Assembly: GCA_001821395.1 (NCBI GenBank)
Contig: MHLM01000012.1
Span: forward strand, 64,001 to 128,000
Source of the DNA: Candidatus Lloydbacteria bacterium RIFCSPHIGHO2_02_FULL_50_18
GTDB lineage: Bacteria > Patescibacteriota > Minisyncoccia > Phycocordibacterales > UBA6899
DNA: 64,000 nt
Direction of reading: 5' to 3'
Positions within the stretch are counted from its first letter, which is position 1; every line of letters starts with the position of its first letter. A program made the position numbers and the translations under genes. The notes below the pieces were generated by a model. It was not told where the DNA came from and did no database searches. It was given only the letters and a program-made list of their open reading frames with translations. Shown here in pieces: positions 1,980 through 45,856 of this stretch.

Positions 1980-3448
1980 AAAAAAACTTTGCGCGCATCT
2001 CTTTTTCTCGCGGTGGCATATTGATCCAGGTCATTGCATTTATGTCCATCGGCATGGTCATCCTTTCGGGGTTCGTCGGTTGGGGAATCATGTCCTCTCG
2101 TGTTGCACGGCACACTGAGGCGCGTGAGCAGGTCTTTGAGATTGCCGAGTCGGGCATCGATTATTACCGTTGGCACTTGGCGCACGCTGATACTGATTAT
2201 CAAGATGGCACTGGGGTGGCAGGTCCTTATGTTCATGATTTTAATGATAAGAATGGAGTCAAGATCGGGACATTCACACTCGATATCACTGCACCCCCAA
2301 CAGGTTCAACGCTGGTCGTCGTGAAGTCAACCGGGGCATTGCTTTCTGATCCGACAATGACACGGACAATCCAAGCTAAATTTGCTAAACCATCCTTCGC
2401 GAAGTATGCACTCGTGACCGATTCCGATGTGTGGGAGGACGCTGTGGAGATATTTGGCCCCTACCATTCAAATGGCGGAGTGCACTTTAGTAACGTCGTC
2501 GCGCACAATGTCGTGACCAGTGCACAAAGAAATTACATTGATCCGGATTTTGGGGGAAATCGTTGGGGTGTTTACACGAGTAAATCTATTGTCGGATATC
2601 CCACCGGAGATCCAAATTATCCGAGCGCATACCCTGTTCGCAATGATGTCTTTGTTGCCGGCCGTACTATTAGCGTGCCGGCGGTTGATTTTGCCGGCAT
2701 GATGTCGGATCTGTCGACGATCAGAACGAATGCACAGACGAGTGGCCGTTATTATGCGCCATCGGGTGCTTTCGGGTATCATATCAAGCTCAAGAATACT
2801 GATAAGTTCGATATCTGGACAGTTACAGCAAAAACTCCTTCACCGAATGGCAGCTGTAAGAGTAACTATTTATCGCAAGACACGCATGGCGGCATGTGGA
2901 GTATTTCGGCTGAGACCGTCCTCGCGTCAAATGTGGATGTACCAACAAATGGACTCATCTTTACTGAAGACGATGTGTGGGTCGAAGGACTGATCGATAC
3001 TGCGCGTGTAACGGTCGCAGCAGCGCGATTTCCCGATAATGCGGCAAATCGAGCAAGCATTATTGTGAATAATGATCTGCTCTATACGAGTACGACAACG
3101 GGAACGGACGTTATTGGGCTTATCGCACAGGGCTATCTGCGTGTTGGCTATGCAAGCGCGGATGACCTTGAGATCGATGCGGCCCTTATCGCACAATCGG
3201 GCGCAATTTGGAGAGATTTTTACTATCAACCTAATTGTGGGGCCTCATCGAAGCGTACGAAGATCACGACGTTTGGTTCATTGATCAGCAATCAGCGATA
3301 CACTTTTTCTTGGTCCTGCGGTGCCAGTTGTACTTCCGGGTATGCGACACAGGTTTCCAATTACGATGTGAATTTGCTTTACGCTCCTCCTCCATCGTTT
3401 CCGCTCACTACCGACAAATATCAGGTGCTCTCCTGGGATGAGATTTAA
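1976..3448 (+). CDS. PilX-like type IV pilus minor pilin/assembly protein
   Basis: N-terminus RGGILIQVIAFMSIGMVILSG resembles PilX_N; 4-nt overlap with upstream pilin gene. Confidence 0.55.
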   Translation: MKKNFARISFSRGGILIQVIAFMSIGMVILSGFVGWGIMSSRVARHTEAREQVFEIAESGIDYYRWHLAHADTDYQDGTGVAGPYVHDFNDKNGVKIGTFTLDITAPPTGSTLVVVKSTGALLSDPTMTRTIQAKFAKPSFAKYALVTDSDVWEDAVEIFGPYHSNGGVHFSNVVAHNVVTSAQRNYIDPDFGGNRWGVYTSKSIVGYPTGDPNYPSAYPVRNDVFVAGRTISVPAVDFAGMMSDLSTIRTNAQTSGRYYAPSGAFGYHIKLKNTDKFDIWTVTAKTPSPNGSCKSNYLSQDTHGGMWSISAETVLASNVDVPTNGLIFTEDDVWVEGLIDTARVTVAAARFPDNAANRASIIVNNDLLYTSTTTGTDVIGLIAQGYLRVGYASADDLEIDAALIAQSGAIWRDFYYQPNCGASSKRTKITTFGSLISNQRYTFSWSCGASCTSGYATQVSNYDVNLLYAPPPSFPLTTDKYQVLSWDEI

Positions 3449-4301: not shown

Positions 4302-5435
4302 ATGATCATTCTTCCTCATGTGACCGATGCATCCGACCTTTCAGGAAAACGCGTTCTCCTGCGTCTCGATCTCAATGTCCCGATCGAAGGCGGCGAGATC
4401 CGCGATCCGTATCGCATTGAAAAATCACTGCAGACGCTGAATTATTTGCGGGCACAGAACGCACGCATCGTGATCATCAGTCACATCGGAAAAGGCGACC
4501 CGGAAGACACGCTCGCTCCGGTCGCCAGATATCTGAATACAAAGTTCCCCACCACGTTTCTTTCCCGGCTTGAAAGTTCTGAAAATGAACGGCTGACCAA
4601 GGAAATGGAGGACGGTGACGTTGTCATCGTTGAGAATCTTCGGCACAGCAAGGGAGAAGAAAAAAATGACTCGCAGTTTGCGGCATATTTAGCGACCCTT
4701 GGAGACGTGTACGTGAATGATGCCTTTTCTGTGTCCCATCGTGCCCACGCTTCAGTGGTGGGGGTTCCCGCTTTGCTTCCGCATTATGCGGGGATACAAA
4801 TACGTGAAGAGGTCGAAAGAATCGCAGTCGCTTTTAAACCCGCGCGTCCATTCTTGTTCATTGTTGGTGGCGCAAAGATCTCGACAAAGATGCCTCTCCT
4901 CAAAAAATTCATTGGTATTGCTGACCATATTTTTGTCGGTGGTGCTAATGTGAACAACCTGCTCAAGTCAAAGGGGTATGAGATCGGTACATCAGTATAT
5001 GACAAAGATGTGGACGGCGACCTTACGGAGCTCCTCGAAAGTAACCGCTTGATCCTGCCGATCGATGTTGTGGTAAAGAATGATGCGGGGTCCGAGGTTC
5101 GCCCCGTCAATCAGGTGAATTCGGGAGACATGATCGTCGATATCGGTCCGGAGACGATCAAGTATCTGGAGGGAGTCGTTGGGTCTGCACAGCTTATCGT
5201 TTGGAATGGGCCTCTCGGATTTTACGAGCAAGGTTTTACTGAGGCAACCAGAGAGCTCATCTCCCTCGTTTCCGGAAGTCGCGCGACTTCTCTCGTTGGC
5301 GGAGGCGATACGGTCGCCCTTATTGATGAAATGGGCGCAATTGATAATTTTTCATTCGTCTCTACCGGAGGTGGTGCAATGCTCGACTTTCTCGCGAACG
5401 AAACATTACCGGGAATCGAGGCATTGCAAAAGTAA
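4302..5435 (+). CDS. pgk: phosphoglycerate kinase
   Basis: RVLLRLDLNVP N-terminal motif, 377 aa, directly downstream of tpiA. Confidence 0.9.
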   Translation: MIILPHVTDASDLSGKRVLLRLDLNVPIEGGEIRDPYRIEKSLQTLNYLRAQNARIVIISHIGKGDPEDTLAPVARYLNTKFPTTFLSRLESSENERLTKEMEDGDVVIVENLRHSKGEEKNDSQFAAYLATLGDVYVNDAFSVSHRAHASVVGVPALLPHYAGIQIREEVERIAVAFKPARPFLFIVGGAKISTKMPLLKKFIGIADHIFVGGANVNNLLKSKGYEIGTSVYDKDVDGDLTELLESNRLILPIDVVVKNDAGSEVRPVNQVNSGDMIVDIGPETIKYLEGVVGSAQLIVWNGPLGFYEQGFTEATRELISLVSGSRATSLVGGGDTVALIDEMGAIDNFSFVSTGGGAMLDFLANETLPGIEALQK

Positions 5436-5556
5436 TACTTGGCCGGACTTTTGTCTGCAGTAAGGGCACCCGAAGAAGCTTCGAGTGTCTTTACATTTGT
5501 GATAAAACGCTATAGTTTTAGCGAGGATGTAAGATTGATTTTTAAAGGAGCGAATA

Positions 5557-6768
5557 ATGCATGATCATGGTCTTGGAATAAATACTCCGATCTACCCTTC
5601 CGTGACTTTTGGGGTAAGCGACCCGGGTAAACCGGCGGAGTATTTCGCAAACGGTATTCCCGAAGGCAAATATTTGTATGGACGCTTTGGGCACCCCAAC
5701 TATGCTGATTTACGCGAGCGTTTGTCACTCATAGAGGGCGGCGAAGATGCACTCCTCTTTGGGAGTGGCATTGCGGCGACGTTTACGCTCTTTTTTGCGA
5801 TGCTTGCTGTTGGTGATCATATTGTTGTATCGAGCCGTATCTACGGCGGCACACGCGGACAGCTTGCTATGCTTGCAGACAAACTTCATCTTAAGGTGAG
5901 TGTGGTCGACATACTCGACATGAATGCAGTGCGTAAGGCATGTACCAAAAACACCAAGTTGTTGTTTGTTGAAGCGCAATCGAATCCTGAGGTCGTGTTT
6001 GCTGACATTCCCAAACTCGCATCTATTTGTCACACTGAAAAAAGAAAAATTCTTTTGGTGGTGGACAACACGTTCACCATACTTGTTGTGCGCCCACTTG
6101 CACTTGGTGCCGACGTGGTGATGCATAGCCTGACGAAATATGTGAATGGGCGCTCTGATGCGATGGGCGGTGCATTGATAGGCAAAAAGGAACTGCTGCA
6201 GAGTATTGCACACCCGGGAACCGGCGAAGCGTCGCTCATTGGCGCGTTGCTCCATCCGCCGGTAGCGCAGGAAATGGCCGAGCGGCTCTATCAGATCGAA
6301 GATCGGGTACGCGAAGCCGGTGTGAGGGCGAAGTATCTTGCAGAACGCTTCCGTGCACGCGGACTTTCGGTGCATTATCCGACTTCGTGCCCCATGAAGC
6401 ATCGACATTTCGGAGATGACCGGGAGTCATGTTACGGCGGTGTATTTTCGGTCCATTTTCCTTCCGTAGAGGAAGGTGTGCGCTTCGTTGATCTTGCCTG
6501 CGCCGAGATGCTTGATGACCCGATGCTCGGAAAATATCCGCTCTCAACCCCTATGGTTTCATTGGGGAGTGCGCATACGTACGTATGGTGCGCCACCGAA
6601 GCATATGTGCAAAGCACGGTGACAAAGTGGAAATCGCTTCCATTTTCACGGGTGCCGTTCGGCTCAGTGCGCATCGCCGTCGGCTATGCGGGTGACAGGA
6701 CCCTCATGCTTAATGGTTTCGATAAGGTGCTTTATGAATTGGGTTATTTTCGATCAAAAGCTCATTAA
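5557..6768 (+). CDS. PLP-dependent Cys/Met metabolism enzyme (cystathionine gamma-synthase/beta-lyase/methionine gamma-lyase family)
   Basis: HSLTKYVNGRSD PLP-lysine motif, VVDNTF, 403 aa. Confidence 0.75.
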   Translation: MHDHGLGINTPIYPSVTFGVSDPGKPAEYFANGIPEGKYLYGRFGHPNYADLRERLSLIEGGEDALLFGSGIAATFTLFFAMLAVGDHIVVSSRIYGGTRGQLAMLADKLHLKVSVVDILDMNAVRKACTKNTKLLFVEAQSNPEVVFADIPKLASICHTEKRKILLVVDNTFTILVVRPLALGADVVMHSLTKYVNGRSDAMGGALIGKKELLQSIAHPGTGEASLIGALLHPPVAQEMAERLYQIEDRVREAGVRAKYLAERFRARGLSVHYPTSCPMKHRHFGDDRESCYGGVFSVHFPSVEEGVRFVDLACAEMLDDPMLGKYPLSTPMVSLGSAHTYVWCATEAYVQSTVTKWKSLPFSRVPFGSVRIAVGYAGDRTLMLNGFDKVLYELGYFRSKAH

Positions 6769-17108: not shown

Positions 17109-17774
17109 TTACGTAAGATGCGCGGTGTCGTTTAATCTAAGAATGACCCATCCTTCTCCTGTTTCGGAAAAATTGGTCCGCACCTTGTGTGTAAGGATGG
17201 AAAACCCGGTGTTATCGAAACGGAATTGATACGCGTTGAGATCGTGCGATGTGAGGCTCTCCCCGCGCTGTGTTGCCGCAACAAAGAACGTCGCGAATAC
17301 CCCATGTGTGACAAGCGCGATGTGTTCATCAGGAAGCGCGAGGAGATAGGTGATCCCTGCGAGTGCTCGCGCTTTCATCATTGAGAACGTTTCGCCGTCT
17401 CCGTAGATAAAGTCCGGATCATGAAAATGATCACGTCCCTCCATGTGAATAATGGACGCACCGGGGTCAGTTGTCAGTTTCCCCCGGATCACGCTTGGGT
17501 GTCGCCGTTCGACGAAGAGAGGCGAGTGGGTCGGCGCGAGACCGATCGCACCTCCGATCGCTCCGGCAGTTTGCACCGCACGGTCATCGGTGCTGGTGAT
17601 GAGTTTTGTGATCGGATAGCGCATGTGTTCACGTGCGAGTCTTGCCGCAAGTGCTTCCGCTTGTGCTTCACCGCGCTTCGTCAGTGGTTCCGTGTTGTGC
17701 TGGAATCGTCCGTCCACGTTTGAACCTGTTTCTCCATGACGGATGATATACAACGTCTTTTGTTTACTGCTCAT
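17109..17774 (-). CDS. histidine phosphatase family protein (phosphoglycerate mutase-like)
   Basis: IIRHGETGSN N-terminal RHG motif; 221 aa. Confidence 0.8.
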   Translation of the reverse strand: MSSKQKTLYIIRHGETGSNVDGRFQHNTEPLTKRGEAQAEALAARLAREHMRYPITKLITSTDDRAVQTAGAIGGAIGLAPTHSPLFVERRHPSVIRGKLTTDPGASIIHMEGRDHFHDPDFIYGDGETFSMMKARALAGITYLLALPDEHIALVTHGVFATFFVAATQRGESLTSHDLNAYQFRFDNTGFSILTHKVRTNFSETGEGWVILRLNDTAHLT

Positions 17775-18011
17775 GGTACGAGTACCTCCTGTTGGTGCAC
17801 CTCCGCGGGGCAGAGATGAGCGCTACTATGAATGAACCACTGCTAGGACAATAGCCGTTTTATCGAGCCGGTGCAAACAGCAGTGATATTGTGTCTCAAG
17901 ACCCTACGACGAATTCTTCGTGAGTTGGAGTCAGTTGTGGATAGCTGCCCATAGCTCCCTCAGTCCTGATCTTATACACAGATTATACACAGAGTTTTCC
18001 ACAAGATAAAA

Positions 18012-18058: not shown

Positions 18059-19105
18059 CTATTTTGTCTTTCTTGCTTTTGAGACCCCACTCACGCTGCC
18101 CCTCACGAGTGTCGATTGATGGATCGCATCCGCGAACAGCATGTCGATGGGTAGATGCGTCAGCCAAGTCTTGTTGCGCTCGTAGTACAGAGGATCTCTC
18201 GGAAGTGTTTCCGTAACGATCACTTTCATACCACTTTGCGCGAACTTATCCTCGGCGGCGGATATTCCTGTCACCTTATCGAGTTTTGCACTGAAGATCG
18301 GATGTGTCGCCATCAGTGTTACCGTTGCCGCACCTTTATCGAACAACATTTTTCCGGCCTTGAGTGCGGTACCACCCGTATCGATCATGTCTTCACTTAT
18401 CCAAACATGTTTTCCTTCGACACTCGGACCGGTTCCATATGCCATTCCCTCAACTTCGTTGGCTGAGACGCGATCTTTGTCGATGATGCCGAACGGTATC
18501 GGTTCAGGAAGTCCGATCGCCTCCGCAGCGTTCCGCGCAAAGGCACGGACGCGCTTACCTCCTCCGACATCAGCGGCGATCGCAACGATGTCTTTTGCTT
18601 CCGGGTGCTTTGCGAGGAAATACGGGAGAAATATCTTTTCGCCGAAGAGGTTGTCAAACGGTCCCGGAAAGAATCCCTGTATCTGGTCCGCATGCAGGTC
18701 AAGTGCGAATAATCTTCGCACTCCCTGAAAGGCAAGCAGGTTCGCGAGAAGCGCCGCGGTGATTGGTTCGCGCGGTTTCTTGCGGTCTTGGCGGGCATTG
18801 GCAAAGTATGGAAGCACGTTGCTGACCGAGTCGGCATCAGCACGCCGAAGCGCATCGTTCACCTGAAGCAGCTCCCAGATACCCTTATTGATATCCGGAT
18901 AAAATGAGTGAATGAAGTAGACGTGCGTGTTGCGTATCGACTCGGGGATGAATGCCTTGAATTCGCCGTCTGCGAACTCGTCATAGCGAACAGTGAGCAA
19001 TTTTCCGCAATCAACCCCTCGCGCCTTCAATGACTGATGTATTGGTTCGGCGACATAGGCCATTCTCGGCGAGGTGAGGATCGTGATCGCCTTTGTTTTG
19101 GGCAT
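18059..19105 (-). CDS. prs: ribose-phosphate pyrophosphokinase (PRPP synthetase)
   Basis: DLHADQIQGFF and DMIDTGGT motifs; 348 aa. Confidence 0.9.
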   Translation of the reverse strand: MPKTKAITILTSPRMAYVAEPIHQSLKARGVDCGKLLTVRYDEFADGEFKAFIPESIRNTHVYFIHSFYPDINKGIWELLQVNDALRRADADSVSNVLPYFANARQDRKKPREPITAALLANLLAFQGVRRLFALDLHADQIQGFFPGPFDNLFGEKIFLPYFLAKHPEAKDIVAIAADVGGGKRVRAFARNAAEAIGLPEPIPFGIIDKDRVSANEVEGMAYGTGPSVEGKHVWISEDMIDTGGTALKAGKMLFDKGAATVTLMATHPIFSAKLDKVTGISAAEDKFAQSGMKVIVTETLPRDPLYYERNKTWLTHLPIDMLFADAIHQSTLVRGSVSGVSKARKTK

Positions 19106-23222: not shown

Positions 23223-23487
23223 AAATTTTGTAATTCTGGCGCCCTTCGCGCTTGACTTTGAACGCGAGTCCGACGAACGTACTATGAGGAGTACGTCCGC
23301 ACGGACATCGCATTCTTGCCGCGCGCGAATTGCATCCAGAATAACAAAATTTTTCGTATCGGCTGCAAAATGCAGCAAATAAAATTCCCTCGAAAGGGGA
23401 ATTTTAATTTTACTAAATCGCGTTGCGGACGTAGTGTTTTATGTTATGGTGACGGAAGATCGTTCAAATTTAATGGAGGAGTGCGTT

Positions 23488-24075
23488 ATGTCCAAGAATT
23501 CTTGTGTCACCGTCATCTACCCGAAATCAATTCCAGTGAATAATGGAGCGGAGAATTGTTTTCTCCTTGGGCCCTGCACAAACGCGCCGCCATATCACGA
23601 GGATGTTATTGATATTTTTGCCCGACTCGCGAGAGAAGACAAAAAAATGATCTCCTTGCGCATCAATTGCCCGAAGCGAGAAGGGGAGATGGTCCGTGCG
23701 CTTGATGTTGTTGCTCCTCCCGCAGAGATCCATCATACCTATGCCCGTCAGCGGGAATGGGAGTTCGAGACTCAGGAGAGTGCCGCATTTTCTGCCGGTC
23801 TCTTGTTCTGTTTCGTTAAGCAGGGGAATAATGCTGTTCCCGAGAAGGTCTACGGAGCGATCACCCAAGTGGAGTTTGGCTATTGGCTTGCGCGGGCATC
23901 GGTCGATAGGCGCATACGCATCGCGTATTACTCTGATGGGATATACAACCACCAACTCCGCGTGCTCCTCCATGACATTGAGCGTCTTGCACCATGGCTT
24001 CTCCCGATGCATACTTCGTTTGAGTCATTGTGTGCGCAGTCGCTCGCATGGGCCAAGCAAGGCCCCTCAAAATAG
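23488..24075 (+). CDS. hypothetical protein (island between rpsG and fusA)
   Basis: GGAGG SD 8 nt upstream of MSKNSC start within ORF 23434..24075; no recognised domain. Confidence 0.5.
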   Translation: MSKNSCVTVIYPKSIPVNNGAENCFLLGPCTNAPPYHEDVIDIFARLAREDKKMISLRINCPKREGEMVRALDVVAPPAEIHHTYARQREWEFETQESAAFSAGLLFCFVKQGNNAVPEKVYGAITQVEFGYWLARASVDRRIRIAYYSDGIYNHQLRVLLHDIERLAPWLLPMHTSFESLCAQSLAWAKQGPSK

Positions 24076-24158
24076 TCCATCAAGCAAGCAATACGAACCG
24101 ATCCTCGGTTCGTTTTTCATTGCAATTTGTGATTCTTAGCCATATTTTCCCGCTTTTT

Positions 24159-24179
24159 TGTCAAGGTTAAACCTTGACA
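24159..24179. repeat. 21-bp perfect palindrome TGTCAAGGTTaAACCTTGACA within a ~40-bp repeat (second copy 45036..45056)
   Basis: Identical arms, T-run 5' flank conserved in both copies. Confidence 0.6.
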
Positions 24180-24194
24180 TTGATATATAAAGAA

Positions 24195-24225
24195 AAAACC
24201 TCCGATGAGTCGGAGGTATTTTTAC
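24195..24225. terminator. bidirectional rho-independent terminator
   Basis: aaaaacctccgatgagtcggaggtattttt. Confidence 0.7.
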
Positions 24226-24434
24226 GTTTGTTTGCTTGGAACTTTTTCTACTCGGTCGCGAGAGTAGTGCCCGTCAAGCCCGGGAATGTCCGTTGAAGTG
24301 CATACGTTGCTTCCATCACAGTGCCGGACAATGTAGATATTGCCGACCGTGAGCGGTAACGTACGCGATGTTTGCCCCGTTGGCTTCGAAAGCAATTTGA
24401 CTCGGTCATTCGAGCGCAGTGTTTGATCAGACAT
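24222..24434 (-). CDS. hypothetical small protein, translationally coupled to upstream gene
   Basis: GGAGGA SD and ATGTCTGA start/stop overlap with preceding gene. Confidence 0.4.
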   Translation of the reverse strand: MSDQTLRSNDRVKLLSKPTGQTSRTLPLTVGNIYIVRHCDGSNVCTSTDIPGLDGHYSRDRVEKVPSKQT

Positions 24435-24777
24435 GAGCATCCTCCATAAATAGATCCGTTTCCGGGGTGATCCCAATACTTTTGATGATCTGCCCGTTGT
24501 CACTCCGTTCGTTCAGGGTGAAACATACCGTTGCAGTACTGTATCCCACGTGACACTTGCTCAGTTTTCCGAGTAATTTGCCTTGCGCGTAGGCGCTGAC
24601 TGTTTTACCGGTGAGCGTGCAAAGTGCAGTGAGATATTGGTCGTTGCGTGCATGGCCCAAGGCTACCGCACTTAGCTCTTTTGCCAACGGATGTCCCATT
24701 TTATTGAGTACATTGACGGCATTTCGGTATTGTTCCTCACGGTACTTGTGGAGTACGTAGGGAATGGGGAATTGCAT
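24427..24777 (-). CDS. hypothetical protein
   Basis: 116-aa ORF, first of a two-gene minus-strand operon inside the rpsG-fusA island. Confidence 0.45.
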   Translation of the reverse strand: MQFPIPYVLHKYREEQYRNAVNVLNKMGHPLAKELSAVALGHARNDQYLTALCTLTGKTVSAYAQGKLLGKLSKCHVGYSTATVCFTLNERSDNGQIIKSIGITPETDLFMEDAHV

Positions 24778-24975
24778 TTGCCTCTCCTTGTTTTGATTTT
24801 GAACTCCTGTGTAAAACTATACATAAGATATTGTTCTTGTAAAGATTCTTTGCAGGTTGCTCAAAAGGGGAGTTTTCTATATAGTAACGCCATTAAGTGC
24901 CCTTTGTGGCGTTTTTGTTTACGCGGCAGTTCGCGTTACGGGGAAGATCATTTATTCGTTTTTTATTCACTTTTT

Positions 24976-32552: not shown

Positions 32553-32935
32553 CATATCGCGGGACGGCGCCTCACTTTTCATGCGCAGTTCTCTCTCGAT
32601 ATGAACTTCGGATAATTGGGTGCCCCATCATTTAATATCCGCTTAACGTACAAATGTGGAAAAAGCTGTGGATAAGCAGTGAATAAGGCGGATCGCTAAG
32701 AGAGATTGACTCTCAGCCCACATCTGGTATCCTGTGCAGACGTTGCTTCATGTGAGTTTTTAGGTTTGAGCCATTCAGTCGAAAGTATGGCTTAAAACAA
32801 GGAGGAAAACGAGCAGTGCACGTGGAATAAAGTTATACGACCATCTCGTATAACCTCTTGTTTTTACAGTATTGGTCATTTCGGTATTATCCGATGTTTC
32901 CAACGCTGAATTATTTAACTAATCAAAAAAGCTTT

Positions 32936-37433: not shown

Positions 37434-37467
37434 AAATTTTCGCGCATTGCTTTGTTGTCATCGTCGC

Positions 37468-37545
37468 GAACCCCGCTCGTCATATACGAATATGCCTCGG
37501 GAGGTATCGCAACTCGACGCCTCGCACTGCATCGAAAATATTTAC
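37468..37545 (+). repeat. conserved intergenic element (copy C), downstream of rplB; also shares gcattgcttt module with the 45.6/49.6-kb elements
   Basis: Alignment to 34558..34640; followed by terminator 37570..37591. Confidence 0.6.
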
Positions 37546-37569
37546 TTCTTTCTAAGATTGAAGGAAAAC

Positions 37570-37591
37570 AAAACCGCTTACTAAGCGGTTT
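37570..37591 (+). terminator. rho-independent terminator after rplB
   Basis: aaaccgcttactaagcggttttgttg. Confidence 0.7.
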
Positions 37592-37672
37592 TGTTGTATA
37601 CAAGCACTTATGTGTCAAAAGTTTTTATACATAAGAAAATTGACATTCTTATGTATGAGGATATAATACTTC

Positions 37673-38760
37673 AATGAGTAAAAAACCAGCTATTGTCGAA
37701 CCCCTCAAATTAGATGGCTTAGGGCTAGACTACAACAGGTTTGCAGAAGAACTTTCAACCGCCGAATATGCGCTCGGGTTAATTGAGGGTATGCAAAAAA
37801 ACTACTAAACCCAAATCTTTTGATTAGTCCCCTAACCGCCAAGGAAGCAGCTGCGAGTTCTAAGATAGAAGGAACACAAAGTGATGTGTCCGATGTATTT
37901 ATGTTTGAGGCGGGTGGGGAAACTAAACATGCAGATACACGTGAGGTTGTGAATTACCGTCGAGCAATGCGTTTGGCCATGACGGAGATTAAAAAAGGAA
38001 GAGAGGTAAGCAGTCATCTGGTAGAGACCCTTCACGGAGTATTATTGAAAGATGTCCGTCATATTGGCAATCTTGGAAAATATAGAGAAGGACAAGTTTG
38101 GATTGCCGAACGATCTGGTGATCCAATTGAGAAAGCGATATACGTCCCACCCGAGGCAATACACGTGCGCGGGTTGGCTCAGAATTTGATTGAATACATA
38201 AACGTGGGGAAGGAGAATGCATTGATTAAGGCAGGCGTTGCACACTATCAGTTTGAGGCAACTCATCCATTTGATGATGGGAATGGGAGAATTGGGAGAC
38301 TCCTTATTCCAATTGTGTTACACAGACATCAGAGATTGTCATCACCAATTCTTTATCTTAGCGGCTACTTTGATGATCATCGAGATGAATATATCGCGAG
38401 GCTCCATGCATTGGATGATGGTGCTGATATGGAAGATTGGTTAAAATTTTTTTACATTCGGTTAGCCAGCAGCTCGGTCAAACACAAAAAATAATTGAAG
38501 GAATTTATGAACTCTATGACCAGCTTAGACTTGAAAATAGGGGGATAAAATCACCATTCGTTATTCCCCTCATTGATATGATGTTTGAGATGCCAATTTT
38601 TACGTTGGCCATGGTGCAAGAATCAACTAAATGCTCGAGCTATATAACTGCATCGACACTAATTAAGAGAATGATTGATGCGGGTCATGTTGAAAATGTA
38701 GGAAAGGTTGGAAGGGAAAAGCTTTATGAATTCCGCTCGCTTGTAAAAGTATTAAAATAA
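37673..38760 (+). pseudogene. Fic/Doc family protein (HPFxDGNGR) disrupted by two -1 frameshifts at 7-nt homopolymers
   Basis: Three consecutive frames encode Fic_N (..GMQKK|LLNPNLLISPLTAKEAAASSKIEGTQ), core with HPFDDGNGRIGRLL, and C-terminal wHTH-like part; breaks at A7 (~37795) and T7 (~38455); restoring 8 nt at each gives one ~360-aa ORF. Confidence 0.7.
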
Positions 38761-38888
38761 TCAATGAATCTGTCCTGGTAAGGAAATTAATCACAATTGA
38801 TTTCACAAAATTTTTACTTCCTTTACTTCCCACTGAAACCCATGTAGTTTGACGGGGGATTGATACGTACTTTAACAGGAGAAATCCG

Positions 38889-39546
38889 ATGAGTATTGGT
38901 GAAAATGTTTTTGAGCGTACGGGTCCTTCGACCATGTCGGCGCGCGGTTTCTACGGCGCACTGGGATTGATCGTCGCGTTTGGGCTCTGGTTATCAAGTC
39001 TCGTGGCGGCAGAGTTCACTGCATGGCAGCCGTCACTCATGGTGATACTGCTTGTCGGGCTCGGCATCCCGATCATCGGCATTGTGATCGCTGCGAAGTC
39101 TGAGACTCCAGCGATCTCATTCCTCGGCTACCTCATGGTGGCGGTGCCATTCGGGATGCTCCTGGGGCCAACGCTCAATCAGTATTCGCCCGAGGTCGTG
39201 CAAAAGGCGATGTTCTACACCGCGGCGACCACGCTCGTCATGGGTGCGGCGGGCGTGCTCTATCCGAATTTCTTTGCGCGGATCGGCGGCGCACTCTTCA
39301 TGGCTCATGGCACTCATCGGGCTTGTCGTTGTGCGCGTCATCGGCATCTTTATTCCCGCATTGGGCAACATGTCGGCCATCGACTATATTTCTGCGGGTA
39401 TCTTCTCGCTTTACATCGGCTACGATATGTACCGTGCAAGTGCAATGCCGCACACGCTCGACAATGCCGTTGACGCCGCATTGTCCCTGTATCTCGACAT
39501 CATCAATTTGTTCCTCAGTTTGCTCCGGATATTCGGCAAGAATTGA
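38889..39546 (+). pseudogene. Bax-inhibitor-1/YccA family membrane protein disrupted by 7-bp tandem duplication
   Basis: tcatggc|tcatggc at ~39298..39311; removing one copy joins ORFs 38889..39473 and 39244..39546 into ...GGALFMALIGLVVVRVIGIFIP...LYLDIINLFLSLLRIFG. Confidence 0.65.
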
Positions 39547-39698
39547 TCGTTTCGTTTTAAACTCGGCATACGCCGGGTTTTTTGTTGCATGTATTTGTCA
39601 CGATGGTTGATCTCAGCCTCGCGAGCTGGTGGTGTTGCGTCTCACAGCCACTTGTGTTTGTATGGTCACAGCGTTCATTTGATCACAAAGGAGAATTC

Positions 39699-40199
39699 AT
39701 GTTGCTCGACAAATTGGTTCCCGTTCTCGGTACGCCCATTCGCATTGGTGTACTTATGGAAAGCAGTGGCGATGGAACAAAAATACCATTTTTCCTCATC
39801 GATTTTGGTAAAGAGTATCCATCGATCGAACCGTTGATCGCCAGAAATGGCACAATGACGCTCGACATCGTACCGGATGGTGACCACTGTACTTTCCACG
39901 TCACTGGAGATCGGATGGTCAGCGAGCTCACTCCCGAGCTTTTGAATCGCGCGCTCGCCGCACCGCCTGAGACGAGGAACCAAGTATTGTTCGGGCAGGG
40001 AAGGCCCGAATTCGCTTCAAGTGTTACGCTTTCAGGCGAATCATGCGAGCAATTCATCGAAGCATTCACTGCAGGCGGCGGGTTCTGGCTTCTCGTCACG
40101 CTCAGTCAGTCCGGAACTCGATCCGTGATCGCTCCAGACGGTGAGATCATTCGTACTGAGTCGTGTTCGCGCTTGGAACTTGAGTATCTCTTGGGTTAA
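39699..40199 (+). CDS. hypothetical protein
   Basis: Internal Met MLLDKLV of ORF 39582; followed by terminator 40210..40247. Confidence 0.4.
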   Translation: MLLDKLVPVLGTPIRIGVLMESSGDGTKIPFFLIDFGKEYPSIEPLIARNGTMTLDIVPDGDHCTFHVTGDRMVSELTPELLNRALAAPPETRNQVLFGQGRPEFASSVTLSGESCEQFIEAFTAGGGFWLLVTLSQSGTRSVIAPDGEIIRTESCSRLELEYLLG

Positions 40200-40209
40200 G
40201 GTTTGCCGT

Positions 40210-40247
40210 GCAACACCCCGACGTGTCGGGGTGTTTTTGTTTTTTCG
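40210..40247 (+). terminator. rho-independent terminator
   Basis: caacaccccgacgtgtcggggtgtttttgtttttt. Confidence 0.75.
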
Positions 40248-40274
40248 GTAAATAAAAACTCCGCAGATGCGGAG

Positions 40275-40634
40275 TCAGTCGGGCTTGAAAAGTTTTGCAA
40301 GAAGTTCTTGCGGGAGAATGTTCGGATCGAGCGGCAATGCATCCAATTCGTCAGCCGACCCTATCGTCTCTCGCGACTCAGCGATCTCGAGTGTGCGGAC
40401 GAGGAGCAATATCAATGCAGTGATATATTGCCGGAATTCATCAGCGGTCTGCGTAGCTACCTCTTCGTGTGCACTTTTTGCACGCTCCCCGATCAGTTCA
40501 ATGAGTCCTCCAAGAGAGGGATTAATTTCTTTTAATCGCAGTACGTGAGTCGTAATGTGTGCAATGAGGGCCGGCCGTAATTGTGGAAGTTCACGGCTTG
40601 CCGCCAAAACATCCAAGGGCATGACATGTTTCAT
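40275..40634 (-). CDS. hypothetical protein
   Basis: 119 aa; its own terminator hairpin (aactccgcagatgcggagt) on minus strand at 40255..40275. Confidence 0.4.
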   Translation of the reverse strand: MKHVMPLDVLAASRELPQLRPALIAHITTHVLRLKEINPSLGGLIELIGERAKSAHEEVATQTADEFRQYITALILLLVRTLEIAESRETIGSADELDALPLDPNILPQELLAKLFKPD

Positions 40635-40795
40635 GGATACTCCATGTGGTGAACAGTGCGCTTACTCTGTTGTACGCGCGAGCGTATGTTGTGTCAAGAA
40701 ATAGCGACTGCATCCCATTTTGTTGTTGAATGGAATGTTTCATCCCGCCCCGTCTGCTCGCTTTACATCTTTTATTGTTGCGTTAGAGTAAGCAT

Positions 40796-41116
40796 ATGTT
40801 TAACTTCAATAAAAAACCGATCCCTGAAGATCGAATAATGACGTGGGAGGAGGAGGCGACCTTCCCCATTGAGCTCCAAGAAGCAGCTCTCTCGAGTTTG
40901 ATAGAAGTCGCACAGCGGCAAGGAGCATCTTCGGTCGATCTTGAAAAACAATTGAATACGATTGAGATCAAGAGACGGGTCATTCTCTGGCTCGGAACTT
41001 TTCCTGATATAGCAGAGAAGAATGCTGCGATCGAACGGGCAAATGCGGAGGGTTTGCCGCCGGAGATATTCACTACTCCGGAGTTTGTTGCTCCGGAAGT
41101 TGAGACGCTCCAATAG
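40796..41116 (+). CDS. hypothetical protein
   Basis: 106 aa; terminator 41165..41197. Confidence 0.4.
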   Translation: MFNFNKKPIPEDRIMTWEEEATFPIELQEAALSSLIEVAQRQGASSVDLEKQLNTIEIKRRVILWLGTFPDIAEKNAAIERANAEGLPPEIFTTPEFVAPEVETLQ

Positions 41117-41206
41117 GCGGTGTGCCGTGGTCTTTTGACCTTGCCACCCCTGGTCTTTGAACGAAAAACCCGCTCATTAGTAGCGGGTTTTTGTAACAGA
41201 GCTCCC

Positions 41207-41272
41207 CTATTTCTTTCCTCCCTTCTTCGGCTTCTTTGCCTCCTTCTTGATGTTGTTGTCTCCGCGTCCCAT
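41207..41272 (-). CDS. putative 21-aa lysine-rich micro-protein (MGRGDNNIKKEAKKPKKGGKK)
   Basis: ATG..TAG small ORF immediately followed on minus strand by palindromic terminator hairpin 41165..41197; paralog of 41362..41427. Confidence 0.3.
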   Translation of the reverse strand: MGRGDNNIKKEAKKPKKGGKK

Positions 41273-41361
41273 GTTGTATGCGTCTATTGATAATATTGCA
41301 CAATTATATCATGACACAGCAAAACACCACCGCACATTTGTGCGGTGGTGTTTTGCTTGTT

Positions 41362-41427
41362 GTTATTTCACTACGACCTTCTTTGGCTTTTTCTTATTTT
41401 TCTGCTGTGCATTGTTTCCTTTTGCCA
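41362..41427 (-). CDS. putative 21-aa lysine-rich micro-protein (MAKGNNAQQKNKKKPKKVVVK)
   Basis: Same length and pattern as 41207..41272; followed by palindromic terminator 41318..41353. Confidence 0.3.
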
Positions 41428-42028
41428 TGACGTATTGCTTATACTGCTAATGAACGAACGTATCTTCAGTGTAGCAGATTTTCGTCATGACATGAAAATG
41501 CCCGGTTGTACCCATGTTGATAGTGGTCATACGGACCGACCCATGCTTATTTGCAAAAACAGGGGATAACTTTCACTACGGAAGGCGCTTTGAGGCTATA
41601 ATGGTGACAACATTTTCGCACATTACGCGCTGGGTGCTTTTGGAGTAAAAAGCGAGCAGGACGTAGTGTGAGAAGATCCACAAAATGGATCCTTATGCTA
41701 TGTTCCAGCGAATGGACATATCGTTGCGGAGAAACAAAAACTTCGTTAACGGTAGAGGTTAGTCGTATATCTTTCTTATCAACATCGTGGATACGCGTTC
41801 GTTGCCTACAGCAAGGAATGTGAAAAGTGATGAAGAGAAGTACTCTGGAGCCAATTTTTATGAATCCGTTGTCGAGTGCTAAAAAGCAAAAGTAACGATC
41901 GCCAATCGTCCTCCCGCATAAAAAAGTATCTGTAGTACTTTTTATGCCAGAGTGCATGCTCATCGAAAGATATCAACGAATTGTCATAGCGCCGCGTTCA
42001 GGCAAGAACGCGGCGTTATGTATTGAGG

Positions 42029-42146
42029 ATTGAGAACATAGCAAATTTCTTTGTTGAAACATGAACATGCAAGCAAGCCGTACTCCGAGTACGGCTTGCT
42101 TGCATGTTCATGTTTCGTCTCGAACTTTGCATATGTTCTCAATCCT
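42029..42146. repeat. ~118-bp near-palindrome with 25-bp perfect inner arms (ATGAACATGCAAGCAAGCCGTACTC|GGAGTACGGCTTGCTTGCATGTTCAT)
   Basis: Inner 52-bp perfect palindrome 42061..42112 flanked by imperfect inverted arms GGATTGAGAACAT...ATGTTCTCAATCC. Confidence 0.75.
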
Positions 42147-42231
42147 AAAGGATGAATGTCCAATCGCTACTGTTGCGATTTTTTTATTATCTGGCAGTCT
42201 GAGTACAGAATGGTCTTCGAGGGAGGCAGGA

Positions 42232-42918
42232 ATGGTTCAAGCATCAGTCAACAAAGAGCAACTAGATAAGCTTCGAAATACTTATTGCGATGCAGCGCAG
42301 TACTTGGGTGTCCCACGCACAAGTGCAGAACGATGTTTCACGAAACTCGCGCAATACTATGCTGAACCGCATCGGCGCTATCATACGCTGGCTCATCTGC
42401 ACCAGTGCATGGTTGAGTTTGCGGATGTAGTGTGGCACAGTCAGGATCCTGCGCTCATTGTCATGGCTATTTTTTACCATGATATTACGTACGACGTTCA
42501 TCGCAACGATAACGAAGCGAAGAGTGCGTTGTATTGGAAATTCATTGCCCGCCATGTACTCGAAGTGAAGAACGAAGGATTCATCGCCGAGGTCGCCCGA
42601 TTGATCGAACTTAGCGGCGAACATCGTACGGACCCTGTCACTGATCCTGATGCCGCGCTCTTCCTCGACGTCGACATGTCGATTCTAGGAGCTGACGCAC
42701 CGGAGTACGACGCATATGCGGCCGCAGTGCGACAGGAGTATGCGCACTGCAGTGACGATGAATGGGCGTTTGGTCGCGTTGCGAAGTTCCTTGATCCGAC
42801 CTTGTGTGAGGACAGAATATTTCTCACTGATATCTTTCGTCAAAAATATGAAGAAAATGCGCGCGCAAACCTGATGGAAGAGCGTTGCCGCTATCAAAAA
42901 AACCTACCGCTCGCATGA
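42232..42918 (+). CDS. HD-domain metal-dependent phosphohydrolase
   Basis: RYHTLAHLH and FYHDITYD (H..H / HD) motifs; start at MVQASVNK downstream of the palindrome; terminator overlaps stop (42903..42930). Confidence 0.55.
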   Translation: MVQASVNKEQLDKLRNTYCDAAQYLGVPRTSAERCFTKLAQYYAEPHRRYHTLAHLHQCMVEFADVVWHSQDPALIVMAIFYHDITYDVHRNDNEAKSALYWKFIARHVLEVKNEGFIAEVARLIELSGEHRTDPVTDPDAALFLDVDMSILGADAPEYDAYAAAVRQEYAHCSDDEWAFGRVAKFLDPTLCEDRIFLTDIFRQKYEENARANLMEERCRYQKNLPLA

Positions 42919-43017
42919 GCGGTTTTTTCTTGACAAAGAGTATTTGTTGTGGAGAATCAAGAACGGCAGTCCCAATAGGGAAAGCCGTTCTTTTACAACC
43001 AACCGAAAGGATAACTC

Positions 43018-43866
43018 ATGAGCGAGATAGCCGAAAAAGTAAACCCATCGACCGATGGGCAGATGAAAGACCTCACCAGCGTTCTGGTGACCGCCATGCC
43101 CGATCACGAAAAATTCCCACGGGAACAAATCGAGTATTGGATGAAAAACAAGCGCTTGCTCGCGGCAAAGGTGCGCGCAGTGCTTGAGGGGGCCCCACGT
43201 GGCCTTGGGCAAACAACGCAAGAAGTGCTGCAATCCTGGGAGCGATTTTATCGCGAGATACTCAAAATAAAAGTCGACTTCTCGGATATCGATACTCCGC
43301 CACGTTTTAGTGAATTTAAGGCCATTATTCCCGTGATCTCATCTATTTCCGCAGAAGAAATTGTCGGTTTACTCACGAAAAATTTCAATCATGAATTTAG
43401 TTTGAGAGACTTTCAGTGCAACTTAGATGAGCTCTCGCACTTGCGTCCGGAGGGGCACTATGCGGTTTTGCACCGAGGTACTCGAATGCCCGATCTCGAT
43501 ATGCAGATCACCAGGCAGCGAGCTACTGAGGGTGTGGTCGCGAGGTACACTTGCGTACATCCTCCCGTCGATGCTTCTTCATTTATGAATCCAAGGGAGT
43601 ACATCCTTTTTGCGGCGTTCAACGTCTGGATGACATCTGGTCGTCACTCGTCACCATGGTTCGACTACGACATTGCTGGCACTAATTTTATTGGCGAGAG
43701 AGCGCTCCCTGGAACCGCGTTCCCACAGATGGATGCTTTTGATCGACCACTGGCCGCGTGTTGCCACTCTAGCAATAACCATGAGTGCCACATTGAACAC
43801 CCTTGTGGCTTTGAAAATTCCTACGGGCGACTTGTGAAAGTACTTTCTTCCTTGCGCATCGCATAA
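43018..43866 (+). CDS. hypothetical protein; shares a local motif with ORF 50374..51195 (possible paralog)
   Basis: RPEGHYAVLHRGTRMPD vs RPRCTYVVVHRGGMEPD; terminator 43871..43906. Confidence 0.5.
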   Translation: MSEIAEKVNPSTDGQMKDLTSVLVTAMPDHEKFPREQIEYWMKNKRLLAAKVRAVLEGAPRGLGQTTQEVLQSWERFYREILKIKVDFSDIDTPPRFSEFKAIIPVISSISAEEIVGLLTKNFNHEFSLRDFQCNLDELSHLRPEGHYAVLHRGTRMPDLDMQITRQRATEGVVARYTCVHPPVDASSFMNPREYILFAAFNVWMTSGRHSSPWFDYDIAGTNFIGERALPGTAFPQMDAFDRPLAACCHSSNNHECHIEHPCGFENSYGRLVKVLSSLRIA

Positions 43867-43899
43867 CGTGTTTATCACCACCGAGAAATCGGTGGTTTT

Positions 43900-44970
43900 T
43901 TATATGATGAGCATTCCGTCGCCGAATGAGTAGAAGCGGAATTTTTCCCTTATGGCGATGTCGTAGAGCGCGAGGATGTCGCGCTTCGCTCTTTTGTGTT
44001 TGAGGAGTGCGTCGACCAAGAGCATGAGTGATGAGCGAGGGACGTGGAAGTTCGTAATAAGCCCATCTGCAATCTTGAATTCGTACGGCGGGTAGATAAA
44101 TATATTCGTAGGCTTAGAACATTGCTCAACACTCCAAGGTTCCACCTTGGAGTGTTGGATTGCAGCGGATTCGAGGGTACGCATGGCGGTAGTGCCGACG
44201 GGGATGATGGGAATACCCGCCGCTTTTGCACTATTTATTTTTTTTGCGCTTTCCTTTGTGATATCGAGATACTCCGCAAAAAGTTTTTTACTTTTGAAAT
44301 TTTGTTCATCAATCGGCGCAAAGGTACCCGCACCTACATGAAGCGTGACCTCCGTACGCGTGATGTGTTCACGTTTCATTTTTTCGAGTAAGCGATCGGT
44401 GAAATGGAGCGACGCCGTTGGTGCTGCAATTGACGCGGGATATTTCGCGAGAATACTTTGGTATTTTTCACGCAATGTGTGCTCGGACATCGTATTGCCC
44501 TTGATATATGGGGGTATTGGCGTCACACCCTCTTTCTCGAGCAAACTCCAAAGGCTGCCTTTGGATACACTGGGATTGAAAAAGAAAAATTGCTCTTCTT
44601 GTCTTTCGACCTCAAGGTGCGCCCCTGACTTAAAGAAGAGTTTGGCACCGGGAAGGATCTTGCGGTCGACCACTCCTTTAATAGAGATGTCGCCGGGACG
44701 GAATTCATTCATCATGAGAAGCACCTCGATCTTGCCGCCCGTTTCTTTGGAAAGCCACAATCGGGCAGGAACGACCTTTGTATCATTAAAGACAAGCAGG
44801 CTGGGTTTGGGGAGATATTGGTCAATATTCCGGAAAACATCAAAATGCACCTTATCAGTTTTCGTATCGTAGACGAACAATCGAGCGGAATCTCGCGGAG
44901 AAGCGGGCTCATTGGCGATAAGCCCCTCAGGGAGGTGGTAGTTATAATCATCGAGAGAGATCATGTGCAC
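43900..44970 (-). CDS. queA: S-adenosylmethionine:tRNA ribosyltransferase-isomerase
   Basis: LPEGLIANEPASPRDSARL, PIPPYI, AAPTASLHFT, HVGAGTF, TNFHVPRSSL, YSFGDGMLI motifs. Confidence 0.9.
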   Translation of the reverse strand: MHMISLDDYNYHLPEGLIANEPASPRDSARLFVYDTKTDKVHFDVFRNIDQYLPKPSLLVFNDTKVVPARLWLSKETGGKIEVLLMMNEFRPGDISIKGVVDRKILPGAKLFFKSGAHLEVERQEEQFFFFNPSVSKGSLWSLLEKEGVTPIPPYIKGNTMSEHTLREKYQSILAKYPASIAAPTASLHFTDRLLEKMKREHITRTEVTLHVGAGTFAPIDEQNFKSKKLFAEYLDITKESAKKINSAKAAGIPIIPVGTTAMRTLESAAIQHSKVEPWSVEQCSKPTNIFIYPPYEFKIADGLITNFHVPRSSLMLLVDALLKHKRAKRDILALYDIAIREKFRFYSFGDGMLII

Positions 44971-45035
44971 ATGCTATCAGGTGAAGCAATATGGGCAAGC
45001 TTTTCTATGTTTAGCAACGTATTTTCGACTTTTTT

Positions 45036-45056
45036 TGTCAAGGTTTAACCTTGACA
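45036..45056. repeat. 21-bp perfect palindrome TGTCAAGGTTtAACCTTGACA (second copy of 24159..24179)
   Basis: Same arms and same gtattttc...ttttttt 5' flank as copy 1. Confidence 0.6.
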
Positions 45057-45179
45057 ATTTTAAGTGGTGCGTTTGCGGCTACGATAATATTCCACAGATA
45101 ATCCACAGAGTTATCAACAGCAAAATGTAATAATTATGGCAAAAAATAACCCCAACCCTTCGGTCGGGGTTGGGGTAGG

Positions 45180-45419
45180 TCAGTCGACCTCTGTGATGGT
45201 AAACTTTTCGCTGCAGGAGTAGAGGAAGCCCTCCTCGAGTCCCCAACAGAAAAAGAACATCCCGTCGCCCTCCTTGGGGGGCACCCCATCCTTATTCGAA
45301 ACGGTCGTTACTCCACCTTCGCGAGTGACTTTGACGTCAACGTAGGACCTGGTGGAACTTAAATCTTCCATAAATTCTGCGTGCTCATCTTCGGTGAGTA
45401 TCGCTGTGGCTATTTTCAT
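45180..45419 (-). CDS. hypothetical small protein
   Basis: 79-aa ORF upstream of queA on same strand. Confidence 0.4.
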   Translation of the reverse strand: MKIATAILTEDEHAEFMEDLSSTRSYVDVKVTREGGVTTVSNKDGVPPKEGDGMFFFCWGLEEGFLYSCSEKFTITEVD

Positions 45420-45589
45420 TGTTGCTCCTTCGGTTTGGTTTTTGAGTCTGACATGACATTAGCACGAAAAATATTTATGTCAATAATTTGATATTCCTAT
45501 ATTTTATAACATATTTTGACTTAATTCGAACGCCACACCTAGGAAGTGAGGGAAATAGGTCTTTTGGGAGACTTCACGGGCTTGAAATA

Positions 45590-45720
45590 CGCACCTGGGA
45601 GCGAGGTATTGCTTTTTGAGGGGCTACGGACCGCGGCGGCGGGAGTTTGAGGAAAAAGTCAGCAGACTTTTATCCGTGCCCTCAAAAAGCAATGCCGAGC
45701 GTATACATTGACTTCTTTGG
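45590..45720. repeat. palindromic intergenic repeat element (copy A) upstream of rpsS; related to 49590..49760
   Basis: Internal inverted arms gcgaggtattgctttttgagggg / ccctcaaaaagcaatgccgagcg; aligns to reverse complement of copy B. Confidence 0.65.
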
Positions 45721-45856
45721 GCTGTTTAAGTAGTATCTAGCACAAGGTATTTCAAATAGTTTCACTCTACGCCGTGGGAGGATCAGGGGCGTTGGGAAAT
45801 CTATATCGAAAAATCGCCAAATCGCCCAAAAGGCTTAGAAAAACTTTTATAAACAT

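Follow-up and report, generated by a model that had tools for sequence, protein, structure and literature searches.

A palindrome of ribosomal-protein gene islands in Lloydbacteria as a probable REP-like element of a RAYT-like Y1 transposase system in Patescibacteria

The closest described systems are the REP/REPIN-RAYT systems of the Gammaproteobacteria, such as TnpA_REP of E. coli (PDB 4ER8) and the REPINs of Pseudomonas (PMC3337134, PMC3116915, bioRxiv 10.1101/2021.07.10.451892). A RAYT is recognized by an HUH motif with a catalytic tyrosine, by palindromes of its own flanking the gene, by a fixed locus and by a single repeat type for each enzyme (PMC3337134; bioRxiv 10.1101/2021.07.10.451892). 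The Y1 HUH fold is also that of the IS200/IS605 transposases (IS608, ISDra2, IS200), whose units of about 0.7 kb carry at both ends subterminal hairpins that are recognized in single-stranded DNA. DNA uptake sequences, as found in Neisseria and Haemophilus, are mostly single non-palindromic words, sometimes in inverted pairs, that occur about once per kb and lie in genes in tolerated reading frames, by substitution and not by insertion. Finally, the Rickettsia palindromic elements (RPEs) are insertions of about 150 bp that add a peptide segment to a protein and have no known dedicated transposase (PMC10969869).

The window analyzed here, a 64-kb stretch of a Candidatus Lloydbacteria genome, contains two exact copies of a palindrome, TGTCAAGGTT-N-AACCTTGACA, with centre A in copy 1 and centre T in copy 2 (Table 1). 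These are the only matches in the window even when up to 3 mismatches are allowed, against 0.00 expected from 100 shuffles, and the sequence-only reading that had pointed them out was accurate as to both positions. It had also described a shared 5' flank, which is real and longer than described: an alignment of the two regions has TTAGC..C.TATTTTC....TTTTTTT and the palindrome in common, a block of about 50-55 bp that includes a one-sided tail of about 30 nt, with no similarity beyond it.

Table 1. Features at and around the two palindrome copies of the window
Feature	Position	Strand	Remark
Copy 1, 21-bp perfect palindrome TGTCAAGGTTAAACCTTGACA, hairpin core	24159..24179		exact match
One-sided tail of copy 1, minus-strand reading after the palindrome: AAAAAAGCGGGAAAATATGGCTAAGAATCA	24130..24158	-	common to copy 2
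Terminator-like hairpin with T-run after ORF 23434-24075	24093..24113	+	context
Bidirectional terminator-like hairpin, 18 nt right of copy 1	24198..24217		context
queA, start 65 bp from copy 2, tail side	43900..44970	-	Pfam Queuosine_synth, 339 bits
One-sided tail of copy 2, minus-strand reading: AAAAAAAGTCGAAAATACGTTGCTAAACATAGAA	45003..45035	-	common to copy 1
Copy 2, palindrome TGTCAAGGTTTAACCTTGACA	45036..45056		exact match
Terminator of small ORF 45180-45419, about 90 nt upstream of copy 2 on the minus strand	45149..45176	-	context

The bracketing of a transposase gene by the palindrome, the co-variation of hairpin and protein, the fold of the protein, the fixed locus of its gene and the tail shared with the window copies identify the window sites, with a probability of about 0.8, as copies of a REP-like element of a RAYT-like Y1 (HUH) transposase system and not as operators of a transcription factor. 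Within the literature searched, such a system has no precedent in Patescibacteria: no paper linking RAYT, REPIN or REP to Patescibacteria was found, and a search by the palindrome sequence returned unrelated papers only. As in REP/REPIN-RAYT systems, a Y1 HUH protein with a catalytic tyrosine is encoded between its own palindromes of about 20 nt in inverted orientation, each paralog has a hairpin type of its own, the gene holds a fixed chromosomal position and appears to be inherited vertically, and solitary copies are dispersed with intergenic enrichment. Unlike those systems, the one described here belongs to Patescibacteria, its protein is extended by an additional helical region at the C terminus and falls short of the NCBIfam equivalog cutoff, and its hairpin is a perfect palindrome of 21-23 bp with an invariant foot of 7 bp. 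Its copies are singlets and not the inverted doublets of REPINs, they number tens and not hundreds, the same 21-mer recurs across class-level lineages, and about 40-45% of copies lie gapless and in frame within genes, in contrast to the predominantly extragenic REPs.

The likeness to IS200/IS605 elements lies in the Y1 HUH fold, in a unit of about 0.7 kb with a hairpin at both ends and, putatively, in the recognition of these hairpins in single-stranded DNA. The differences are that there is no sign of multiple identical copies or of variable positions of the whole unit, that the fold is nearer to RAYT (E 4e-6 versus about 1e-3) and that solitary hairpins far outnumber the gene. With RPEs the system shares the presence of palindromic repeats of a reduced-genome bacterium, in frame, in unrelated housekeeping genes; the element, however, is 21-23 bp long and replaces resident codons with no change of length. 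Unlike DNA uptake sequences, it occurs only about once per 30-100 kb, is nearly always a full palindrome and is tied to a transposase gene.

Pairing of the palindrome with a Y1 transposase gene

The distribution of the element was determined by scanning one genome per species for the exact 21-mer. Among the matches listed, more than 115 stretches carry it, nearly all from Patescibacteria MAGs, including Lloyd-, Taylor-, Zambryski-, Nomura-, Vogel-, Giovannoni- and Gottesmanbacteria, Paceibacterota and MAGs labelled Saccharibacteria; the motif is conserved in relatives of the window's genome, and its absence elsewhere, on which the sequence-only reading would have been abandoned, can be set aside. 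Several assemblies hold at least 5-11 exact loci each (the window has 2 per 64 kb). Open reading frames neighbouring the palindrome were clustered, which yielded one dominant family of 14 proteins of about 220-230 aa. Its best Pfam family is Y1_Tnp (33-43 bits versus a cutoff of 23), and its only NCBIfam match is the REP-associated tyrosine transposase model NF047646 at 41-45 bits, below the equivalog cutoff of 80; the subfamily is a distant one. An alignment of 35 sequences shows the HUH motif and the catalytic tyrosine as invariant N81-H82-F83-H84 and Y142-I-x-L-N-P. The family protein, of about 225 aa, often ends in ...VKV[EQ]P*, and the few named members among its 5,249 relatives in the protein collection are called transposase or hypothetical protein.

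A sequence search of the transposase against PDB chains gave no match, and structural matches came from a fold search alone. With an AF2 model of pLDDT 88 as query, the best Foldseek match in the PDB was 4ER8_A (E 4.1e-6, TM(target) 0.68), E. coli RAYT in complex with a REP hairpin; the next transposase was 2VJV at 8e-4, with the IS608, ISDra2 and IS200 transposases at about 1e-3. The modelled fold is therefore closer to TnpA_REP than to the IS200/IS605 transposases.

At the transposase loci found through the motif, in at least 10 genomes (L018, L022, L041, L056, L067, L084, L087, L094, L095, L007/L050), a pair of palindromes brackets the gene, one about 25-30 nt before the ATG and the other at or over the stop codon; a bracketed copy that is truncated occurs in a Bathymodiolus symbiont. 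Homologs at 53-70% identity were also picked by protein alone, with the motif ignored, and all those with DNA (5 genomes) have, on either side of the gene, the hairpin or a variant of it in which a change in one arm is compensated in the other. The variants are TGTCAAGGT-TCG/CGA-ACCTTGACA in L120, CACTGTCAAGGTC-C/G-GACCTTGACAGTG in L118, TGTCAAGAC-TAA-GTCTTGACA in L116, TGTCAAGGC-CTC/GAG-GCCTTGACA in L122 and TGTCAAGGA-GAG/CTC-TCCTTGACA in L123, and the two hairpins of the flanking pair are mutual reverse complements in L120, L122, L123 and L118. In the hairpin alignment, pairing holds in 98.3% of cells, double-sided changes occur in 4 of 9 pairs and none of 500 shuffles reaches the score; above an invariant 7-bp foot, the upper stem varies on both sides and tracks the divergence of the protein. 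The same symmetric changes would be expected of a protein that binds double-stranded DNA as a dimer, so that co-variation alone is no proof of a hairpin. More divergent paralogs (33-47% identity) carry unrelated hairpins. A single 64-kb contig, LBYH01000003.1, holds three Y1 paralogs at 33-37% identity (L084 34-588, L084 7014-7682 and L026 4936-5598), each between repeats of its own type, such as GCGTCGAAGTCCGACGTCGA at the L026 copy.

An xAnnnT hexamer stands 16-18 nt after the arm TTGACA in 11 of 15 transposase genes, and the ATG usually comes about 6 nt later. This arrangement suggests that the transposase mRNA is leaderless and that its -35 element is the enzyme's own site.

The gene order rplS-hairpin-gene-hairpin-rluD is found in five genomes (L067, L007/L050, L116, L122, L123) at 63-100% protein identity, and the transposase thus appears, from gene order, to be vertically inherited at a conserved chromosomal position, with the Bathymodiolus symbiont as the exception. 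No transposase homolog was detected in the 64-kb window itself (best tblastn E 0.04), so the partner gene of the window copies is assigned from relatives. The window's ribosomal proteins are 92-98% identical to those of Lloydbacteria GFS_13726 (L025) and about 80-89% identical to those of MAG GL114 (L045), and all six palindrome copies of GL114, including the two flanking its transposase, have the window tail, which at those two points outward. The same tail stands, likewise outward-pointing, beside transposase-flanking hairpins in L067, L122 and L123, and that of copy 2 is nearly identical to the tail beside the flanking copy at L067:6145; the window element is hence the same as the copies that flank the transposase. 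In the closest relative, Lloydbacteria contig L008, rluD and a palindrome are followed by the end of the contig.

The layout of these loci would also suit an autonomous insertion sequence of the IS200/IS605 type, with the palindromes as its subterminal hairpins and the solitary copies as scars or solo ends. In size (about 720-790 bp) and layout the hairpin-gene-hairpin units match IS200, the family belongs to Y1_Tnp and many homologs sit on very short contigs. Furthermore, an unrelated gammaproteobacterial symbiont carries the module, implying at least one horizontal transfer. Against this stand the constant position of the gene between rplS and rluD in five genomes, at identities as low as 63%, the best fold match to a RAYT and not to IS608 or ISDra2, and paralogs within an assembly that are just 33-47% identical and have other hairpins. 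No identical second copies of the transposase were seen in the loci examined, which are 8-20-kb stretches of draft MAGs, and phage carriage was rejected as the palindrome has no match in viral contigs. Genic copies, moreover, align gaplessly and are therefore not excision scars. We regard an autonomous element as improbable.

The transfer just mentioned concerns a thiotrophic symbiont of Bathymodiolus heckerae (L023, NZ_FXLV01000006.1), where positions 4785-5760 contain carA, a ThiS-like ORF and then three exact palindromes, which accompany a transposase copy of low GC (33%) that is truncated at its N terminus; with five more palindrome loci, this genome has six among the matches listed. The genuine gammaproteobacterial context of this module indicates that the protein-hairpin pair was transferred horizontally outside Patescibacteria at least once.

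Copies inside genes

The positions of 133 sites were compared with open reading frames assigned by a greedy ORF call, in DNA that is 87% coding: 63 sites are intergenic, 10 lie over a gene end and 60 lie inside ORFs. About nine of the latter are near an ORF start and may be upstream of the gene, and approximately 51 remain once they are dropped. Intergenic sites are therefore enriched 4-fold, yet a large minority of copies is genic. Among the 60 genic sites, 53 are in the S-R-[LF]-N-L-D frame, the one frame that is always open, and the genes concerned are housekeeping genes, ligA, uvrC, argS, dus, mnmA and purL among others. In an alignment of 120 LigA homologs, 10 have L-SRLNLD at one column, gapless against LQQLNNV, LAKLNLQ, LTRLNLV and similar sequences in the others. 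A further 19 comparisons of carriers and non-carriers are gapless as well, including two uvrC sites and RecJ against the RecJ of the window, and at the codon level close orthologs keep the outer arms and differ in about 5 inner bases. As genic copies align without gaps to homologs that lack the motif, they arose by substitution and not by insertion, and an insertion model for them was rejected on all of these comparisons. The LigA carriers fall in 9 NJ clades, which makes a single inherited gain in ligA unlikely, a point softened by the star-like tree.

Some directional process, be it conversion or selection, is needed to account for the genic copies, and neither cut-and-paste nor copy-and-paste insertion explains them. 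They count against the RAYT-like reading, as do the low copy number, the NCBIfam score below cutoff and the lack of a transposase in the window. It is possible, and we propose it tentatively, that the hairpin is a genomic signal written and kept exact by a domesticated Y1 enzyme, or by selection acting through it, by means of substitution or short-tract conversion, also in essential genes. If so, REP would spread without insertion, and this would explain the gapless genic copies and why they were gained repeatedly at identical codons in scattered lineages. It would also explain why exact copies outnumber degenerate ones: at secondary sites, which are free of the ascertainment introduced by exact matching, 16 copies are exact and 4, 4 and 1 have 1, 2 and 3 mismatches, respectively. 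The same holds for the way the palindrome extends into its flanks, with a different sequence at each site. The bases adjoining the palindrome are complementary at 74% of sites, and flank complementarity of at least 3 bp is found at 31% of sites versus 1.6% expected, reaching 13 bp with sequences specific to each site, alike in genic and intergenic copies.

Much of this could also be put down to what is primarily a chromosomal signal selected by the host, for DNA uptake, segregation or chromosome organization, which the transposase-like gene merely carries or targets. In favour of this, the copies within genes came about by substitution and are found at identical ligA codons in 9 scattered clades, the exact sequence is kept across class-level lineages, exact secondary sites exceed degenerate ones, and DNA uptake sequences are likewise known to build up gaplessly in genes. 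The density, however, is far too low for uptake, lone half-sites are rare (14 in 809 kb), and the hairpin changes along with the transposase subfamily, as expected if the transposase is its reader. A parS-like or origin-linked site was also considered and rejected: GC skew is monotonic across the window and never changes sign, placing no origin there, and the link to DnaA boxes is weak, with 10 boxes within 60 nt of palindromes versus 5.1 expected at up to 1 mismatch, or 3 exact boxes versus 0.42 expected in this post-hoc count. A host-selected signal is likewise judged improbable.

The sites are singlets, and the sole close pair that does not flank a transposase belongs to a 55-bp tandem in L057. 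There, positions 2880-3060 hold an array of units of about 55 bp, each with a full palindrome and further half-sites (gtcaaggt); at no other place seen are copies closely repeated with no transposase between them.

The window copies and their surroundings

Copy 1 lies in the rpsG-fusA gap, between a plus-strand and a bidirectional terminator, which converge on it, and copy 2 lies in the rplB-rpsS gap upstream of queA; the labels of the four ribosomal-operon genes were verified with Pfam. As single-stranded DNA, copy 1 folds into a 9-bp stem with a 3-nt loop (z of -3.1 and -3.3 on the two strands) and copy 2 into a 10-bp hairpin (z of -4.0 and -4.7). Apart from queA, no Pfam domain was found in the ORFs flanking either copy. 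Consensus scans for promoters and terminators at both copies were negative, bar a weak plus-strand terminator call at copy 2, and the tail, considered as a promoter, has TAnnnT-like words (TAGAAT, TAGTAT) with no -35 element at the right spacing. Most likely, the two window copies are passive, lying in untranslated spacers with no sigma-70-type promoter or terminator.

The str and S10 ribosomal-protein operons are interrupted at 23223-24966 and 37434-45856 by blocks of ORFs that mostly have no Pfam domain, the exceptions being a Fic/DOC protein (37820-38494), a Bax1-I family membrane protein (38889-39473) and queA. In its longest form the fusA ORF has 92 codons ahead of the EF-G domain and runs over the minus-strand ORF 24427-24777 (region 24691-24966); the true start is probably near 24967, and the Pfam GTP_EFTU match begins at residue 12. 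L025 and L045 both have a palindrome upstream of rpsS with different adjoining island content, and L025 breaks the rplB|rpsS junction as the window does, with the palindrome there and other content beside it.

The sequence-only reading had taken the palindrome for the operator of a dimeric transcription factor that co-regulates the genes of the two islands. What stands of this is that the element is real, non-random and probably protein-recognized. Its perfect dyad symmetry is of the kind such a dimer would bind, the symmetric two-arm changes fit a dimer as well as a hairpin, and binding at the TTGACA arm, which has -35 spacing in 11 of 15 transposase genes, could regulate transcription. At the window copies, however, no regulator or domain-bearing neighbour other than queA is present and no -10 hexamer occurs at promoter spacing (16-18 nt) on either strand; copy 1, moreover, sits between two convergent terminators. 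Elsewhere, the recurrent neighbour is the Y1 transposase and not the HTH protein that had been proposed as cognate regulator. Flank complementarity that is specific to each site, up to 13 bp, and the 40-45% of copies within coding sequence also speak against an operator. Co-regulation of the island genes was consequently abandoned, the motif being tied to the transposase gene and not to the islands, and an operator of this kind is very unlikely; the one place where an operator-like role is plausible is the promoter of the transposase itself, with the arm TTGACA as -35. The companion suggestion of a mobile origin holds for the element itself; it fails for the island cargo, as the two islands share nothing past the element of about 55 bp and hence have no common cargo origin.

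That the palindrome acts as an RNA hairpin, stabilizing or attenuating transcripts with no dedicated protein, is highly unlikely: the stem is stable on both strands, a simple scan calls copy 2 terminator-like on the plus strand and some copies lie 6-40 nt after intrinsic terminators, but no plus-strand gene ends upstream of copy 2, its T-run is poor, proximity to terminators (8 of 133 sites versus 13 of 348 controls) is not significant, no Rfam family matches, and both the exact conservation of the foot and the pairing with a transposase would be left unexplained. The earlier statement that the motif is not a terminator was confirmed, the T-run being 5' of the hairpin on the plus strand with no gene ending there. 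No Rfam family reached its gathering score anywhere in the 64-kb window, which accordingly has no tRNA and no ribosomal-protein leader, though it spans the str, S10 and spc gene clusters.

Proposed activity and significance

In the RAYT-like system proposed here, the element would consist, in the window's lineage, of the perfect palindrome of 21-23 bp and its one-sided tail of about 30 nt, and its partner would be a RAYT-like Y1 tyrosine transposase encoded elsewhere in the genome, between rplS and rluD in relatives. By analogy with the E. coli RAYT-REP and IS608 complexes, the enzyme may recognize the element as a hairpin in single-stranded DNA and may cut and rejoin near the hairpin foot, probably within the tail. 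The repeats would then be non-autonomous products or substrates of the enzyme, binding, cleavage and copy-making all being attributed to it from those better-known relatives.

The function of RAYTs and the multiplication of REPs are open questions, for which this system offers a minimal case: genomes of about 1 Mb carry tens of sites, the hairpin is perfect and has compensatory variants in nature, and the gene keeps a fixed locus. REP-like sequences arise here within essential genes with no change of length, which is not what the usual insertion models predict. For Patescibacteria, whose regulation and genome dynamics are poorly known, the palindrome is a phylum-wide landmark that breaks assemblies and marks variable junctions in ribosomal-protein operons, and in annotation it should not be taken for an operator, a terminator or a -35 box.

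DnaA-box-like words are frequent in the window as a whole, with 23 occurrences versus 12.6 expected and none of 100 shuffles reaching 23. Four 9-mers with at most 1 mismatch to TTATCCACA are clustered within 70 bp at 17936-18003, in the spacer between the minus-strand ORFs 17109-17774 and 18059-19105; two such words lie at 45099-45119, about 45 nt right of copy 2, and another pair, one box of which is exact, lies at 32655-32675. At L084 7664-7684, the convergent transposase and ligA genes both end within one palindrome, both reading ...VKV[E/Q]P, with the stop codon TGA supplied by the palindrome on each strand.
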